From a virus, in IMG/VR virus record IMGVR_UViG_3300037258_000514, positions 111,953 through 175,952 of that record: a stretch of 64,000 bases of DNA; one strand, 5' to 3'. Position 1 is the first letter of the stretch. The number at the start of each line of letters is the position of its first letter. This document shows positions 3,585-64,000 of this stretch, piece after piece. The position numbers were made by a program, and so were the translations under genes. Below the pieces are notes generated by a model that worked only from the letters and a program-made list of their open reading frames with translations, did no database searches and had not been told where the DNA came from.

Positions 3585-3828
3585 AGTTGTTATTCCGTAG
3601 TAAGGCACGTATTTTTAACACGCCCTCTTTTACTTCTACAGCATTCTTTGTTGAAAGTTCTTCTAACTTCTTTACTATGAAGTTATACGCACCATGTGTG
3701 CTTAGTGCTTCTGCAATCAACTTCATAAACTCTTCTTGACATGCTCCATCATAAATGATAGGAATGTGTTGATACTTACCTTCACGAAAGTAAAGCCCTT
3801 TTCCCCGTGCTTCAATTGTATGTTTCAT
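3565..3828 (-). CDS. hypothetical protein
   Basis: ATGA overlap with upstream gene. Confidence 0.6.
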   Translation of the reverse strand: MKHTIEARGKGLYFREGKYQHIPIIYDGACQEEFMKLIAEALSTHGAYNFIVKKLEELSTKNAVEVKEGVLKIRALLRNNNYAKCNE

Positions 3829-4031
3829 ATCTCATTTACTGTTATTGAAGCTCCCTCTGCATGTCCAGCAGCCTTTAATATCTTATCTGCTAAACCTGTT
3901 GCAAGAAATGTTTCGTACCAGTAGTTAGGATAATGCCCGTTGTGAGCTTCCTTAACTTTGGCACAGTTAGCGTTCCATTCTCGTGGAGTCTTGCTTGACG
4001 ACATGAGTGCTACTACATCTTCTTTTGTCAT
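3825..4031 (-). CDS. hypothetical phage protein
   Basis: Compact operon ORF. Confidence 0.65.
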   Translation of the reverse strand: MTKEDVVALMSSSKTPREWNANCAKVKEAHNGHYPNYWYETFLATGLADKILKAAGHAEGASITVNEI

Positions 4032-4241
4032 TTAATAAATTCCCGAATGTCCTGATGCACGTGCTCGTTGCTTTCTAACCACTCCATAACAATGGTCACA
4101 CAAGGGAACAAGTCTACTCGAACCTAATGGATAGTGATGTTTCCTTGTTTTCTTTGGTTTGTGGCAGCGCGCACAGTTTGGTTTACTTGCTATAGTGGGT
4201 TTGGTTTGCGTGTTATCTAGTTGCTGCTTTTGAAGGTTCAT
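4032..4241 (-). CDS. small Cys/His protein (CxxC...HH...CxxC, HNH/Zn-finger-like)
   Basis: CARC...HHY...LCDHCY; AGGAG SD. Confidence 0.55.
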   Translation of the reverse strand: MNLQKQQLDNTQTKPTIASKPNCARCHKPKKTRKHHYPLGSSRLVPLCDHCYGVVRKQRARASGHSGIY

Positions 4242-4256
4242 CTACTGTCTCCTTTC

Positions 4257-4442
4257 TTATAACTCCTTCCAGTTTATTGTGTTAACTGCGCTGTGCATTT
4301 TAGCTTTCATTGCTTCAGCAACTCTTGTACACTCTGCTTTAGCGAAGATTGTAAATTGATCTGCCATCTGCTCGTTAATAACCCAACCACGACTATTTAG
4401 TTCTTTAACAAACTCTAAAGCGCGATCATGTACTGTCTTCAT
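4257..4442 (-). CDS. hypothetical protein
   Basis: AAGGAG SD upstream. Confidence 0.6.
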   Translation of the reverse strand: MKTVHDRALEFVKELNSRGWVINEQMADQFTIFAKAECTRVAEAMKAKMHSAVNTINWKEL

Positions 4443-4459
4443 TTTCTCTCCTTTCTATC

Positions 4460-5302
4460 CTAAAGCTTGATTCCTTCTAACATTGAAAGTTCTTTTTCTG
4501 TTACTACTACAAAAGTAGAGTTGTTTTCCTCCGCCCATTTTATAGCAGCGGCAAACTTCGCAACATTTTCTGTTGTTTCTAAAAGATTAAAAGGTTTAAT
4601 CTCAACTAGTTTCCTATCTCCGTTAGTGTAAGTAACTAAGAAATCTACAATGTAAATTCTAACTTCATTGTTAAGTATGTATTGAAGTCGAATTTTATCC
4701 TTTTCAAATAAAAGAACGTCTTTTCTTTTATCTAAAAATCTTGTAAACGTTCTTTCCCAATTACTCTGACAGAAAATATTACCGCCTTTTACTGTTATTT
4801 CTACTGATGATTTTGCTTTGAAACGATGTTTTTGCGGGTTTGTTTTTCCTTGACTTATGTTTTCAAGACAAGAATTACTAAGCTGCTTCCTTAAACTCTC
4901 AGGCCATGGATGCATAATCTTTCCCGGTTTTTTGGCTATAGCAGCCCTTATGCTAGCCGAAAGAAGATTTTTTATTGCAGAAGCTTTTTCTTTACCATAT
5001 TGTTCCTCAAAACTTCTGCCTTTCTTGTTATTTGGAGGATGCCATGCTCCAGAAGCAATTAAATTCTTCTTTGATTTACTCATATTCTTCTTATTTTCTT
5101 CTGTTGGCTTCCAACCTTTGTTTCCATGTCCTCCTCTATTTTTATCGCCAATTTTAATTCTAGCTTCGATAGAGACTTTATGGCCAAGAAGTCCTTCGCT
5201 TATATGAGTACGATGAGCTTCAGAACACTTCTTTCCTTTTCGAGAAAGGCTCATTCTCTCTTTCCAAAGAGCGTAAGCTTCGGGATTTTTCGGGGCAGGC
5301 AT
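4460..5302 (-). CDS. free-standing homing endonuclease: NUMOD3-like repeats plus TnsA-N-like PD-(D/E)XK domain
   Basis: KGKKCSEAHRTHISE repeats; SNWERTF...YIVDFLV...LVEIKP...KFAAA...FVVVTEKEL. Confidence 0.8.
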   Translation of the reverse strand: MPAPKNPEAYALWKERMSLSRKGKKCSEAHRTHISEGLLGHKVSIEARIKIGDKNRGGHGNKGWKPTEENKKNMSKSKKNLIASGAWHPPNNKKGRSFEEQYGKEKASAIKNLLSASIRAAIAKKPGKIMHPWPESLRKQLSNSCLENISQGKTNPQKHRFKAKSSVEITVKGGNIFCQSNWERTFTRFLDKRKDVLLFEKDKIRLQYILNNEVRIYIVDFLVTYTNGDRKLVEIKPFNLLETTENVAKFAAAIKWAEENNSTFVVVTEKELSMLEGIKL

Positions 5303-59168: not shown

Positions 59169-59801
59169 ATGAAATATATAGTAATTTGTGTTGTACTATT
59201 TGCTGCTTTATCTCTTTCTGCTCAAACATTTGGACCATACCCTGCATTTTGTGATCTTGTTCCGACAGGAGTAAACGCTCCGTTATATCAATATGGTAAT
59301 AATATAGTACTTGGTTCGGATGGATGTGCTAAGATAACATTTGTTACTTCTGCTGTTTTCTTAGGTAATCTTGGTGGACAAGCAGGAGCAGATACTTCTT
59401 GTCAGCAAGCAGCTAATACTGCGGGATTACCCGGGAAATATAGAGCTTGGTTAGATACTAGTTCACATCTTACACAGGTTCCTCTTCCCTATGTTTTAGT
59501 TGATAATGCCCAAACAATTACAACTTTAGCTATAGTTGCACCAAATTGGGTAGCTATATCAAACGGCGTTTTAACTATTCCAATTAATGAAACAGAACTT
59601 GGAACAACGGCTCCCGGAAAAGCATGGGCTGGGCAAGATTCTCACGGAGTGCCAACAGGATTAGATTGTGTAGGTTGGACATCATCTCTTCATTCTGATG
59701 GAGGTGGTGTAGGTTCTCCTCTCGCTACTGATGGAACATGGAGTAATTACGGTTCTCGAAACTGTGATGTTCCGCAATCATTATATTGTTTTCAGCAGTA
59801 A
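59169..59801 (+). CDS. secreted DUF1554/endostatin-like domain protein
   Basis: Signal peptide; FVTS...GNLGGQAGADTSC...YRAWL...C.GWTS...LYCFQQ. Confidence 0.8.
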   Translation: MKYIVICVVLFAALSLSAQTFGPYPAFCDLVPTGVNAPLYQYGNNIVLGSDGCAKITFVTSAVFLGNLGGQAGADTSCQQAANTAGLPGKYRAWLDTSSHLTQVPLPYVLVDNAQTITTLAIVAPNWVAISNGVLTIPINETELGTTAPGKAWAGQDSHGVPTGLDCVGWTSSLHSDGGGVGSPLATDGTWSNYGSRNCDVPQSLYCFQQ

Positions 59802-59811
59802 GAGGAATTTA

Positions 59812-60492
59812 ATGATTTCCCTTCTCTTACCGACAAGAAAACGTCCTGAAAAACTTGGTCTGATGGTTTCGTCTATTAAAGAGACAGCGTTTATTCAACC
59901 TGAAATAGTTGTTTATGTTGACAACGATGATAAAGCTAGTATACATAAAGCTAATGAACTTGGAGTTAATACTATCGTTGGGCCAAAACTTGTTTTTACA
60001 GACTACTGGAACAAGTGCTATGAAAAAGCAACAGGTGATATATTAATGATGGCTGCTGATGACTTAATTTTTAGAACACATAATTGGGACGTAATGGTAG
60101 AAGAGGAGTTTAAAAAATCTGAAGATAAAATTATCCTTGTTTACGGACGCGATTTGCACCCGCGGGTAAGCATTCCTTCTCACCCTATAATTCATCGTAA
60201 ATGGGTTGACGCTGTAGGATATTTTAGCCCGCCTTACTTTCAAAGCGGAGGGTGTGACATCTGGCTTAACGATGTTGCTGCTTTTCTCGAAAGGAAACAT
60301 TTCGTTGATTTTACTGCAGAACATATGCACTACACAGTAAGAAAAAGTGATCTAGATGAAACGTATAAGGCGCAGATTGCCCGACGTAAAGAATACAACG
60401 TAACAGATTTATATTATGCTATGATAACAGAACGAATGGAAGATGCTGCAAAACTTATGAATGTAATAGAGAAATCTGCCCCTGTACATTAA
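59812..60492 (+). CDS. GT2 glycosyltransferase, paralog of 41343-42011
   Basis: ISLLLPTRKRP...YVDNDD...ADD...WD...EHMH; ATG 59812 with GAGG SD. Confidence 0.85.
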   Translation: MISLLLPTRKRPEKLGLMVSSIKETAFIQPEIVVYVDNDDKASIHKANELGVNTIVGPKLVFTDYWNKCYEKATGDILMMAADDLIFRTHNWDVMVEEEFKKSEDKIILVYGRDLHPRVSIPSHPIIHRKWVDAVGYFSPPYFQSGGCDIWLNDVAAFLERKHFVDFTAEHMHYTVRKSDLDETYKAQIARRKEYNVTDLYYAMITERMEDAAKLMNVIEKSAPVH

Positions 60493-60851
60493 AACTACAT
60501 ATCTGACTCCCTGCTGGACCTCAACCCGATTCGAGCTAAGGCCGGAATCAATGGAGGAAATATGGACAATGTTACAGCGGAAATAAGAGTAACGGGACTC
60601 AAGGTTCAACCATTTGCCTACAAGGATGGGAACGGCGAGATGGTCGGCGGCGAGTCATTGGAAATGCGGGCGGCTGGTTTCTGGATTGACGAGGGTGACC
60701 ACCGAGCCGCTAACCACTTTCCCGTATCGCTTCACATGACCGTCTATCCGGGACACGATGTTGTTCCCGCTATAGGCGATTGCGTGAAAATCTCTGTAGA
60801 ACGCAGCAGTTAGGTAGTCAAGCGATCCGCAGAGAGTCAAGTATGTAGTTT
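60492..60851. mobile_element. inverted-repeat-bracketed single-gene cassette
   Basis: About 26-bp imperfect inverted repeats at 60492-60518 and 60826-60851; interior is GC-richer. Confidence 0.5.
60562..60813 (+). CDS. hypothetical protein inside the cassette
   Basis: GGAGG SD. Confidence 0.65.
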   Translation: MDNVTAEIRVTGLKVQPFAYKDGNGEMVGGESLEMRAAGFWIDEGDHRAANHFPVSLHMTVYPGHDVVPAIGDCVKISVERSS

Positions 60852-60861
60852 AGAGAAAACT

Positions 60862-61110
60862 ATGAAGCGTTGGATCATCTTCGCATTAGCCGCAGCAGTT
60901 GCAGTTGGGCGTATATTTATTACGCCGCGACTAACAAATATTCCGTCAACTGAAATGAGTTACGAAGCATTTGCTCACTTATTTGTGGGCGGATTGATTG
61001 GTATTTCATGGTACAACTGGCATGATGAAGAAGCAACGCTTTATGGACGTATTGGATGGGGATTAGCATTCTGGGAACTCGGATGTTTTATCGTACAGAA
61101 GTGTTTTTAG
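60862..61110 (+). CDS. small membrane protein
   Basis: Hydrophobic segments. Confidence 0.6.
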   Translation: MKRWIIFALAAAVAVGRIFITPRLTNIPSTEMSYEAFAHLFVGGLIGISWYNWHDEEATLYGRIGWGLAFWELGCFIVQKCF

Positions 61111-61116
61111 AAATCT

Positions 61117-61932
61117 ATGGCTAAGGGAACGTGGATTAGAACTGATGAGTTTCGTGAAGCTCAACGGCAAAGAGCTTTACAAGTGTACGAACGTAAATTA
61201 ACTTTAACAGGAAGTAAAGTTGATTATATAACTCCTGAGTATAGAACTAATCTTAGTGCCGGAGTCCGTAAAGCTTGGAAAGAAGGAAGACGCAAAGGTG
61301 GATGGAAATGTAGCGAAGAACATAATAGAAGTATTAGTTTAGCGTTAAAAGGAAAACCAAAATCTGAAGAACACAAAGCTAAACTTCGTGGACCAAGAAC
61401 AGAAGAGGAAAAGCTTCATATGCGTGAAGCTGCGTTGAATAGAACAGAAGAACAGAAACAACAAAGAAATACGCGCTATCAAATTTCTTTAGACCTTAAC
61501 GGCGGAAGAGAAAGAATAAGTGCGGCTAACAAAGGGATAAAACGATCAGAAACTACAAGAGCGCTAATTGTAGTAAATAGGGCAAAGTTAAAGTTTCCGT
61601 ATAACAATAGTAAACCTGAAGTAAAAACGCAGGAATATCTTCGTTCGATTAATGTTAGTTTTGAAACACACAAGAGACTAGAATTTTATCGTCTTCATAC
61701 TTACGATATTGTTATTACAGATAGAAAAGTAATAGTTGAAGTAGATGGATGTTACTGGCATGGATGTCCTCAACACTATCCGGAAAATTTAGATGAGCAG
61801 AAAGAGCGTGATCTCTTGCATACATCTATTGCTGAACAGAATGGTTGGAAAGTAATTCGAATATGGGAACATGAAATAAACTCGGGCGATTTTAGTAAGC
61901 TAATCGCTTTAATGGAGGGCAGGAATGGCTAA
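61117..61932 (+). CDS. free-standing homing endonuclease: NUMOD3 repeats plus Vsr/DUF559-like domain
   Basis: KGKPKSEEHKAKL; SKPE...YDI...VEVDGCYWHGC...GWKVIRIWE. Confidence 0.85.
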   Translation: MAKGTWIRTDEFREAQRQRALQVYERKLTLTGSKVDYITPEYRTNLSAGVRKAWKEGRRKGGWKCSEEHNRSISLALKGKPKSEEHKAKLRGPRTEEEKLHMREAALNRTEEQKQQRNTRYQISLDLNGGRERISAANKGIKRSETTRALIVVNRAKLKFPYNNSKPEVKTQEYLRSINVSFETHKRLEFYRLHTYDIVITDRKVIVEVDGCYWHGCPQHYPENLDEQKERDLLHTSIAEQNGWKVIRIWEHEINSGDFSKLIALMEGRNG

Positions 61933-64000
61933 AGTATGTATACTAGATAGCCCGTCATGGTTACTTTTCAACCCAAGACAATTCCTGCACCTCTAGGTAT
62001 ACTTTATTTAGCAGGCGCTCTTCGAAGAGCAGGACACGACGTCGAGGTTATTGATTGTCATGATGTAACTTCTTGGGATGCAGATAAACGAGAACTGATA
62101 ATTCATAGAGAGAAACTTACAAAGTGTGATATTGTTGGTATCTCTGCAACTACTGCAAACGTACACTGGGGCAAACAATTAGCAAAAGTATGGCCGGCAA
62201 AGTTTAAGGTGTTAGGTGGATCGCACGCTACTTATATTTTGAGAGGTCCACATGAGCAGTTTAAACGTCCTTCGTACTTTGAAGGGTTTAATTTTATTAT
62301 AATCGAAGAAGCTGAAGAAACTTTCGTTCAGTTCTGCGATGGTTTCGATAAAGGCGATGTATCACAAACGCCTAACCTGTGCTGGTTTAACGCACTCGGA
62401 ATGTTACAACGTAATCCTCATGCTGGATTACCTGATGTAGAAAAACTAGCTCCTCCGGCTTTTGATTTATGGCCTAGTCAATTTGCTGGTGGAGGATTAA
62501 GTGCAAACGGATATGATAGAAAACTGAACTTAAACGAAGCGATGACAGCTTCGATGTATAACAGTAGAGGATGCTTAGAAGCAGGAACACAAATTACACT
62601 AGCTAATGGAACTTTAAAATCTATTGAAGATTTACAGGAAGATGAAGAAGTTCAGTGTTTTGATCTTAATACAAAGAAGTTAGCAAGTGCTCCTATTAAA
62701 GTTACATGGGAGAGGGAAGCGAATGATCTATGGGAAATTGAATTAGAAAATGGTGTTATATTACATATAACAGGTGAGCATCCTGTATGGACAAAGGAAG
62801 GATGGCATATAGTTGAGAAAGTGTACGATGGTCAAGAAGTTTTGTTCTCAATGCGGGACAGAATTCCTTGTTTATCCTTCGCAAATACATCTGAAAACTT
62901 GTTCTCACAAATGCAGAGTAGAACTGTTAACGGAAACACTTACGAAGAAAGCAGCGGCGATGACCAAGGAAGAAAGAGCAAAATACTACGGTCATCCTCC
63001 GATTCCGTCTATAGAGACTCAAAGAGTTATTTCAGAAGGAAAGCGCGGAGACAAAAATCCAGCGAAACGCCCGGAAGTAGCAGCGAAGATTGCAAATACA
63101 GTGAAAACAAAGTATGGAGCTATTCTATCAGCTCAAATCAAAAAGCGTTGGCAAGCTGGAACAATGCCTTTGCCATGGCAAAGAATTGGTGGTATAGGAA
63201 TAGCGCCGAACAAGTCGGAATTGCTTCTAACACAGATACTAAACGAGAGTTTAACTCAATTCAAATATGTAGGAGATGGCAACTTCTGGATTGGGCCCTG
63301 CATCTCAGGTACGCGCCGCAATCCGGACTTTGTGGATTCAAAATCAAAAAAAGCTATACTTCTTCACGGCGAGTATTGGCATCCGGAGAAAGATGCTCAA
63401 GTAGAAGCTTTAGATTATCTAAACTACGGATGGAAAGTTTGCGTAATTTGGGATGCAGAATTGAGTATGAAGAACAGAATAATTCTTCAAAACAAGCTGA
63501 AGTTATTTGGACAAGAGTCATACGAAGGACATTTGTTGGGCATTCCAGCGTCTACAATATAACAATTCATCCTTACCATAACTATTTTGCAAATGGAGTT
63601 CTTGTTCATAACTGTCCTTATGGCTGCAGATTTTGTGCCGATGCCCGCACCAAAATACGTAATGAAAGTTTCGATCAAGTTGAAGGGCAAATTAAGCACC
63701 TTGCATCCTTGGGAGTATCAGCGATTCGGATTCAAGATGACGTTCTCACGATTAAAGCTGATAGATGTAAAAGGATTGCAGATATCCTCGATAATTATAA
63801 CATGAAGTGGCGTGGCAATACACGCGTAAATCTTACAGATCCAAACTTATTTAAGTACATGGCGAAACGTGGATGTATTGAGTTAGGTTTTGGCTGTGAG
63901 CATGGATCTGCAAAGATGTTAAAGTTAATGGATAAAGGTACTACGCCTGAGAAGAACACAGAAGGGATCAAGATGTGTCAAGAAGCCGGCATGGTTGCTA
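61925..64000 (+). CDS. B12-binding radical SAM enzyme, intein-interrupted, frameshift near the start, runs off the window
   Basis: PLGILYLAGALRRAGHDVEVID, VGIS, VLGGSHAT, SRG|intein|CPYGCRFC, IQDD, GCEHGS; main frame open 61957-64000 by manual translation. Confidence 0.88.
62572..63612 (+). mobile_element. intein, 347 aa
   Basis: CLEAGTQITLANG..KSIEDL; TGEHPVWT..GW; VYNITI..YHNYFANGVLVHN followed by Cys. Confidence 0.92.
62813..63562 (+). CDS. Vsr/DUF559-like endonuclease nested in the +1 frame of the intein
   Basis: CSQC...CSHKC; GDKNPAKRPEV; PNKSE...YVGDGNFWI...NPDFV...HGEYWH...GWKVCVIWD. Confidence 0.8.
   Translation: MRKCTMVKKFCSQCGTEFLVYPSQIHLKTCSHKCRVELLTETLTKKAAAMTKEERAKYYGHPPIPSIETQRVISEGKRGDKNPAKRPEVAAKIANTVKTKYGAILSAQIKKRWQAGTMPLPWQRIGGIGIAPNKSELLLTQILNESLTQFKYVGDGNFWIGPCISGTRRNPDFVDSKSKKAILLHGEYWHPEKDAQVEALDYLNYGWKVCVIWDAELSMKNRIILQNKLKLFGQESYEGHLLGIPASTI

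Follow-up and report, generated by a model that had tools for sequence, protein, structure and literature searches.

The DNA analysed here, hereafter the window, corresponds to the final 64 kb of a linear IMG/VR virus record of 175,952 bp (IMGVR_UViG_3300037258_000514, estimated completeness 86%), and near its end a gene for a B12-binding radical S-adenosylmethionine (SAM) enzyme is interrupted by an intein. We conclude, with a probability of roughly 0.82, that this element is a mobile intein with an independent gene for its homing endonuclease, overprinted on the intein in the +1 frame of the same strand. The textbook intein is a splicing domain with a nuclease fused to it in frame, whereas here two separate genes overlap on the same DNA. 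The radical SAM gene, the intein, the overprinted nuclease ORF (open reading frame) and the free-standing nuclease gene upstream of them all lie on the + strand.

The frame of the radical SAM gene (the host frame) is free of stops from position 61957 to base 63999 and encodes, in this order, a B12-binding domain, the intein and a radical SAM domain. The N-extein (61957..62571), which ends in ...NSRG, matches the Pfam B12-binding family (8e-10), and the C-extein (63613..64000), which is truncated by the contig end, begins with CPYGCRFC, the CX3CX2C cluster motif, and matches Radical_SAM (1.3e-11). Between them lies a class-1 intein of 347 codons (62572..63612), whose translation runs without a stop from C1 to the final HN and is followed directly by CPYGCRFC. 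The Pfam family Intein_splicing (1.3e-16) covers intein residues 8-347, with its profile split by a large insert and the two extein domains on either side. Block B reads T67-G-E-H70, in agreement with the T67-x-x-H70 pattern, and in an alignment of 12 homologous inteins the residues C1, T67, H70, H346, N347 and the Cys at +1 are invariant.

The position of the insertion was established by comparison with intein-less alleles, the nearest of which read ...ARG|CPYGCRFC.... The exteins align without gaps to the intein-less homologues P0016 and L057 at ...RG|CPYGC...; P0016 is 77% identical on both sides of the junction, and the two extein matches in L057 abut at 4636/4637. These comparisons put the insertion point of the intein immediately in front of the first Cys of the CX3CX2C iron-sulfur motif. 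A first-pass annotation of this DNA, made from the sequence alone, had placed the interruption at SRG|CPYGCRFC, at the first Fe-S cysteine, and had read the intein frame as stop-free over 347 codons; both claims hold.

In an AlphaFold2 model of the intein, built on the alignment of the 12 homologous inteins, the confidently predicted part can be overlaid on the mini-inteins of Mtu RecA, Npu DnaB and Ssp DnaB with Z=22 and root-mean-square deviations of 1.4-1.8 Å over 134-136 aligned residues. The N-terminal HINT lobe (intein residues 1-95; 62572..62856) and the C-terminal HINT lobe (residues 308-347, blocks F and G; 63493..63612) are both predicted with a local distance difference test score (pLDDT) above 90, and the pattern VYNIT...H.Y.AN..VHN of the latter is kept in 12 loci. 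The region between them (residues 96-307; 62857..63492), which we call the filler, has a pLDDT of ~32 and no predicted fold. It is rich in Ser and Arg, with 42 Ser and 26 Arg in the 249 host-frame residues that lie over the nuclease ORF, and a Pfam search found no domain in it, as the first-pass annotation had also remarked of the central residues. As modelled, the host frame is a 135-residue mini-intein carrying a ~212-residue unstructured Ser/Arg-rich loop, and its sequence suggests that protein splicing would take place despite the filler.

The nuclease ORF (62813..63562) comprises 249 codons in the +1 frame, from TTG 62813, with an alternative start at the first in-frame ATG (62828), to a TAA stop (63560-63562) that falls in the codons of intein block F, 16 codons before the intein end. 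Relatives of its product were found at E-values down to 5e-50, with ~40% identity, and a profile search of 1.8 billion representative proteins returned 6865 relatives, 43 of them below 1e-30 and mostly of 150-400 amino acids. Judged by these matches, the ORF encodes a real protein and is no artefact of composition. Three parts can be recognized in it. A zinc-ribbon-like CxxC...CxxxC element (C11, C14, C30 and C34; 62843..62917) is modelled as two short beta hairpins and gives weak Pfam zinc-ribbon matches. It is followed by a NUMOD3-like motif, G.KNP.KRPEVA.KI (63038..63112), in which N82, P83, K85, R86, E88, V89, A90 and K92 are invariant, and by a Vsr-like nuclease domain (63200..63517; D172, H185, H190 and D201), identified by a profile match to PDB entries 1odg, 1vsr and 1cw0 (E=6e-4). 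The earlier description of a coherent Zn-finger/NUMOD-like/Vsr-type endonuclease that stops inside the C-terminal splicing region is borne out by these results.

An alignment of the clade (7 members) contains 41 invariant columns, including NP.KRPEVA.K, RNPDF, AILLHGEYWH and DY...W. The NUMOD3-like NP.KRPEVA.K is thus invariant in the clade; the Pfam family PF07460 was detected in the distant relatives P0012 and P0014, and the window protein itself has no Pfam NUMOD match. In the catalytic domain, the segment PDF...LLHGEYWH aligns with PDFV...FTHGCFWH of Vsr, and a GW.V..W strand aligns as well. On the E. coli enzyme, D172 corresponds to D51, H185 to H64, W189 to W68 and H190 to H69, while D201 lies at roughly the place of D97; none of the residues equivalent to D51, H64, H69 and D97 varies among the 7 clade members. 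The AlphaFold2 model of the nuclease reaches pLDDT values of 80-89 across much of the core, and its top two PDB matches in Foldseek are Vsr (1cw0; probability 1.00) and the catalytic domain of I-Bth0305I (3r3p; TM 0.69 by target). The folded nuclease sits over the filler, and the overlap with the intein lobes is confined to nuclease residues 1-15 and ~227-249; the last 11 nuclease residues are modelled with low confidence and residues 219-233 as a helix. In these models, the functional residues of the intein and the nuclease barely overlap.

Both frames of this region are open, and openness by chance from base composition was ruled out. The window has a guanine-plus-cytosine (GC) content of 41%, and open stretches of the third frame do not exceed 30 codons in the window and measure only 5-111 codons across the 15 loci described below. 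In addition, the frame equivalent to the host frame contains 39 stops in a free-standing nuclease gene located upstream (61117-61932), and 23-59 in six free-standing relatives elsewhere. A host-frame stop requires a nuclease codon that ends in T before a codon that starts with AA, AG or GA. In the window, none of the 67 junctions at risk has a T at this position, versus 64 of 181 (35%) at other junctions (Fisher 5e-11). Synonymous recoding of the nuclease gave an expectation of ~20.5 host-frame stops, with 0 observed and P(open)=1.9e-12, a value that is approximate, since the codon background was taken from the long ORFs of the locus itself in all six frames. The same avoidance of T was found at the 14 other loci, with P(open) between 2.7e-5 and 3e-10. 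Selection thus bars a T-ending nuclease codon before AA, AG or GA because the resulting host-frame stop would destroy the enzyme, and this rule is a clean signature of selection acting on frame openness alone.

The nuclease lies +1 to a long open host frame in 15 of 15 loci (the window, L001-L004 and L028-L037; GC 0.41-0.63), and its ORF is intact in all of them. Gene-called homologues supplied some of the loci, and scanning viral and metagenome contigs with a profile added others; scanning GTDB genome contigs with a profile, or viral contigs with single proteins, yielded no relative. They are not all independent, as L002, L030, L031, L032 and L034 are close kin, and they amount to about ten lineages with <60% nuclease identity. 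The host gene encodes a B12-binding radical SAM protein in every locus, and most of the inteins are inserted before Cys1 of the motif. Two sites are occupied in overprinted form: in L004 (3625-4683) the same layout is found in a different, longer B12-binding radical SAM subfamily, before Cys3 (CPFPCSF|C...HN|CYWG), indicating that the insertion point has moved within one short conserved target. In gene-caller output these homologues become a nuclease gene on its own with a short radical SAM gene behind it, whereas in the DNA the radical SAM frame is open throughout.

This conservation bears on whether paired sequencing or assembly indels could have displaced an ordinary in-frame intein endonuclease, a possibility that the first-pass annotation had set aside for checking. 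The window does come from a single metagenome-assembled viral contig, but fourteen other assemblies, from different samples and with GC contents of 0.43-0.63, have the same phase relation, and indels would leave the codon-level avoidance of host-frame stops unexplained. An artefact of this kind is thus ruled out for practical purposes.

Selection differs between the two frames. When all pairs of loci are compared, divergence is highest at the third position of nuclease codons (0.57 versus 0.43 and 0.38 at the other two), and the same DNA yields an amino-acid identity between loci of 46.5% in the nuclease frame versus 28.8% in the host frame. We also sorted the substitutions in eight pairs by their effect in both frames (N, nonsynonymous; S, synonymous), in an OLGenie-like manner with uncorrected p-distances. 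The pNN/pSN ratio for the nuclease was 0.33-0.59, and the pNN/pNS ratio for the host-frame filler was 0.85-1.73. The nuclease protein is under purifying selection, and the filler is free to vary provided that it stays stop-free, with no constraint on its amino acids. The suggestion that selection acts on both frames therefore stands, with the qualification that in the host frame it takes the form of stop avoidance only.

The distribution of the intein among radical SAM genes is patchy. A search with the N-extein recovered 93 homologous radical SAM proteins of 417-569 amino acids, with identities of up to 77% and lengths that fit intein-less alleles. Among homologues of nearly the right length we looked for a mini-intein ancestor; the one longer match, P0108 (569 amino acids), is a TPR fusion and not an intein. 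The intein-less L057 is found in a phage-like context, beside an SU10-type major capsid gene. On the extein tree, the window gene is nested among 38 intein-less alleles as the sister of P0020 (support 95), the pair L003/L028 is placed elsewhere, and a third intein-bearing group forms a separate subfamily. The presence of the intein requires at least three changes on this tree, two of which are forced by well-supported branches. Such a pattern is compatible with homing or with repeated precise loss, and is by itself no proof of current activity.

In the mechanism that we propose, translation initiated at the start codon of the radical SAM gene (61957) would continue through the whole intein. 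Lobes 1-95 and 308-347 would associate despite the loop, fold as a mini-intein and perform class-1 splicing through C1, T67xxH70, H346-N347 and Cys+1, restoring the CX3CX2C iron-sulfur motif of the enzyme. Internal initiation at TTG 62813 or ATG 62828 would produce a nuclease of 244-249 amino acids, with its zinc ribbon, NUMOD3-like motif and Vsr-like domain. The +1 protein, as its sequence suggests, would cleave DNA at the vacant allele, cutting intein-less radical SAM genes in co-infecting phages, and recombinational repair would then copy the intein together with the nuclease into the cut allele.

Several points weigh against this reading, beginning with the fact that splicing, internal initiation, cleavage and homing are steps that we infer from an observed anatomy, stop avoidance, layout conservation, frame-specific selection and patchy distribution. 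The mode of initiation of the +1 ORF is the weakest link in the account. In the window, the start signal is modest: it consists of the TTG codon with a Shine-Dalgarno-like sequence, AAGGAAGGA (62794..62802), 10 nt upstream, within the intein codons for KEG. The L002/L030/L031/L032 group has AAGG upstream of the TTG, with a spacing of 9 nt, in the corresponding position just past the intein GW motif, and in several other homologous loci a Shine-Dalgarno-like signal is weak or absent. A scan of 60800-64000 for consensus promoters and terminators found fewer promoter-like sites than in shuffled sequences, none of them positioned for the +1 ORF.

Such weak or variable start signals would fit a +1 ribosomal frameshift in place of internal initiation. 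A single shift would produce a fusion of N-extein, N-intein and nuclease, and a second shift back would generate a conventional in-frame intein-nuclease; the relative L058, described below, naturally encodes an in-frame fusion of N-intein and nuclease. A TAG codon directly precedes TTG 62813, however, and closes the +1 frame, so that the shift would have to come after it. Frameshifting also leaves unexplained why ~250 host-frame codons stay stop-free, which is the strongest signal in the data, and we regard it as very unlikely.

The remaining points against a mobile intein with an overprinted nuclease concern the nuclease itself and the sampling. The nuclease model is of moderate confidence overall, with a mean pLDDT of 69.5, and the E-values of the two Foldseek matches are only 2e-3 (Vsr) and 8e-3 (I-Bth0305I). 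The Pfam family Vsr (PF03852) is matched by all 7 clade members, with a best E-value of 8.6e-4, but at least the window protein, at 18.7 bits (E=0.0016), lies below the curated gathering threshold of 27 bits; the nuclease is therefore termed Vsr-like and is not assigned to the Pfam family. At the position of Vsr Phe62 it carries Leu183, and not the acidic residue found there in homing enzymes of the EDxHD type (PMC2677866, PMC3239194). A Glu occupies this position in the upstream free-standing gene (VEVDGCYWH) and in the in-frame relative L059 (IEVLGDYWH). The first-pass annotation had, on account of the sequence ILLHG, considered activity uncertain for want of the usual catalytic Glu. That caveat falls away, because Vsr itself is non-acidic at this position (IFTHGCFWH) and the Leu of ILLHGEYWH is invariant in the clade; Leu183 is thus no argument for inactivity. 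With respect to mobility, the intein-less sample is skewed to normally called genes, and the nucleases of the sampled inteins are all ≤50% identical to that of the window, so that no recent transfer is documented. Two loci deviate from the common layout. L031 has a single host-frame stop near 603-605, despite 97% identity to L032, and L034 (3454-4761) carries an extra 37-residue insertion in the host frame and seems to have lost the zinc-ribbon N-terminus of the nuclease; both may be decaying copies or assembly errors.

The nuclease ORF could on these grounds be an inactive relic, left by a free-standing gene that landed in a mini-intein and persisting by vertical inheritance after homing was lost. 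The absence of a documented recent transfer (the closest sampled nuclease is 50% identical), the apparent truncation in L034, the host-frame stop in L031 and the lack of the EDxHD-type acidic residue would all agree with it. A dead +1 ORF would, however, soon gather stops, as the third frame does within 111 codons at most, and the ORF is instead intact at every one of the 15 loci. Every tested pair has a pNN/pSN in the range given above, all of the Vsr catalytic equivalents are among the 41 invariant columns, and the extein tree calls for at least three gains or losses of the intein. We consider a relic unlikely, and retain the mobile intein with its overprinted nuclease as the best explanation.

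Related nucleases also occur in other arrangements. The free-standing gene at 61117..61932 encodes a NUMOD3/Vsr-like (DUF559) homing endonuclease, with Pfam matches to DUF559 and Vsr and matches to the HNH/homing endonuclease families of PHROG. A gap of 24 nt separates it from the radical SAM start downstream, and it is absent from the syntenic, intein-less L057, which indicates that the locus carries two independent selfish nuclease genes. The first-pass annotation had assigned this gene to the same family as the intein nuclease. The two do belong to one superfamily, with a common Vsr-like core, but they are not close paralogues: they have only the catalytic core in common (BLASTP E=2e-4 over 59 amino acids; hhalign 73%). 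As only ~55-60 catalytic-core residues can be aligned, the upstream gene was ruled out as a recent source of the intein nuclease. L005-L009, L038 and L045, which are more distantly related to the intein nuclease, are free-standing genes of the ordinary kind.

Two further relatives are joined to inteins in a different manner. In L058 (367-3209) the radical SAM gene is fractured: ORF 1 carries the B12 domain, the N-intein and the nuclease in one frame, and ORF 2, which overlaps it by 4 nt, carries the C-intein and the radical SAM domain, with the insertion before Cys2 of CX3CX2C. A second, intact B12-binding radical SAM gene follows at 3652-5112. In L059 (530-2842), an intein in QueC (7-cyano-7-deazaguanine synthase) contains a nuclease relative that is fully in frame and is flanked by several NUMOD3-like NPM repeats. 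This single nuclease family may thus display every stage of the route by which inteins acquire nucleases, counted here as free-standing genes (L005-L009), the +1 overprinted form (15 loci, ~10 lineages), the N-intein fusion in a split intein (L058) and the in-frame form (L059). Overprinting would then be a long-lived, selectable state along that route, an idea that we put forward tentatively and at slightly less than even odds. If true, it would give direct comparative support to the model of 'splicing first, nuclease later', and would provide a natural system in which to follow the effects of a 200-residue disordered loop and of two-frame ribosome traffic on splicing and homing.

Out-of-frame nucleases in inteins have been described recently, in agreement with the earlier remark that such cases are rare and not unprecedented. 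According to a preprint of October 2025, inteins of actinobacteriophages contain an endonuclease-VII-like nuclease on the same strand in frame 3, or Vsr-like and LAGLIDADG nucleases in antisense, and reside in terminase, DNA polymerase, minor capsid and thymidylate synthase genes (Gosselin, Arsenault & Gogarten, bioRxiv 10.1101/2025.01.02.630785); a preprint of September 2026 reports that the dnaX intein of cyanobacteria has its endonuclease out of frame (bioRxiv 10.64898/2026.09.14.751524). The element described here resembles the actinobacteriophage inteins in that the intein is contiguous, the nuclease is encoded between the splicing blocks in a different frame from the intein, and the in-frame middle has no recognisable fold. 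In both cases, a free-standing nuclease gene that invaded an intein is the proposed origin. Automatic gene calling also tends to miss such elements, and here the callers split the gene. It differs from them in its same-strand, +1 Vsr-like/NUMOD3-like nuclease, its B12-binding radical SAM host gene and its occurrence in uncultured environmental phages. Further differences are the two overprinted insertion sites, with a third in the split-intein relative, and the quantification of stop avoidance and of frame-specific selection.

A second comparison is with the fractured genes of Dassa et al. (2009, PMC2677866), whose nucleases likewise pair a Vsr-like domain with N-terminal DNA-binding motifs (putative in the present protein), are encoded on the same strand between intein halves, and are likewise found mainly in phages and metagenomes. 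In those genes the host gene is divided into two ORFs separated by a non-coding spacer, and the intein acts in trans. Here, by contrast, the host frame runs unbroken from 61957 to the window end and is kept open by selection, so that the intein should act in cis; the true fractured relative of this nuclease family is L058. The nuclease can also be compared to I-Bth0305I and the EDxHD enzymes (Taylor et al. 2011, PMC3239194; PDB 3r3p), with which it has in common a Vsr-like fold C-terminal to NUMOD-type DNA-binding motifs, which in the present protein are putative, and a conserved Mg-binding Asp, general-base His and neighbouring Asp. I-Bth0305I resides in a group I intron and has NUMOD2-type motifs, and its family carries a conserved acidic residue at the Vsr-Phe62 position; with Leu183 and a retained H185, the equivalent of Vsr His64, the active site described here looks closer to that of Vsr proper than to the EDxHD type. 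Finally, in the ShiLan HNH system of phage methylase genes (Arsenault et al. 2025, PMC11855218) a nuclease is also overprinted in a shifted frame, within an insertion that is stop-free in the host frame. That insertion has no splicing domain and stays as a loop of the host protein, whereas here complete intein flanks surround the nuclease and the insertion should be spliced out.

In the literature that we searched, we found no same-strand, overprinted Vsr-like nuclease in a contiguous intein, and no such inteins in radical SAM genes. Out-of-frame intein nucleases are known from the 2025-26 preprints with other nuclease types, and the present case adds a different nuclease family and a different host gene. 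It supports the idea that inteins gain nucleases through invasion by free-standing homing genes. The splitting of these loci by gene callers means that inteins of this kind, along with the intact enzymes that they interrupt, are systematically mis-annotated in phage metagenomes. The family also offers compact mini-inteins that tolerate a loop of ~210 residues, and Vsr-like nucleases whose probable target is the conserved sequence coding for CX3CX2C.

As for the setting, a blastn search of 61000-64000 against GenBank phages returned zero near-identical genomes. The contig end at 64000 removes the C-terminal ~130 residues of the radical SAM gene, as well as its downstream neighbours. Two small ORFs upstream (60562-60813 and 60862-61110) gave no counterpart in L057 by tblastn. 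The neighbourhood of the radical SAM gene is one of sugar modification, with a glycosyltransferase gene in the window and an NAD-dependent epimerase gene downstream in L057. The upstream glycosyltransferase is common to both, with 44% identity between window positions 59731-61110 and L057:2133-4008.

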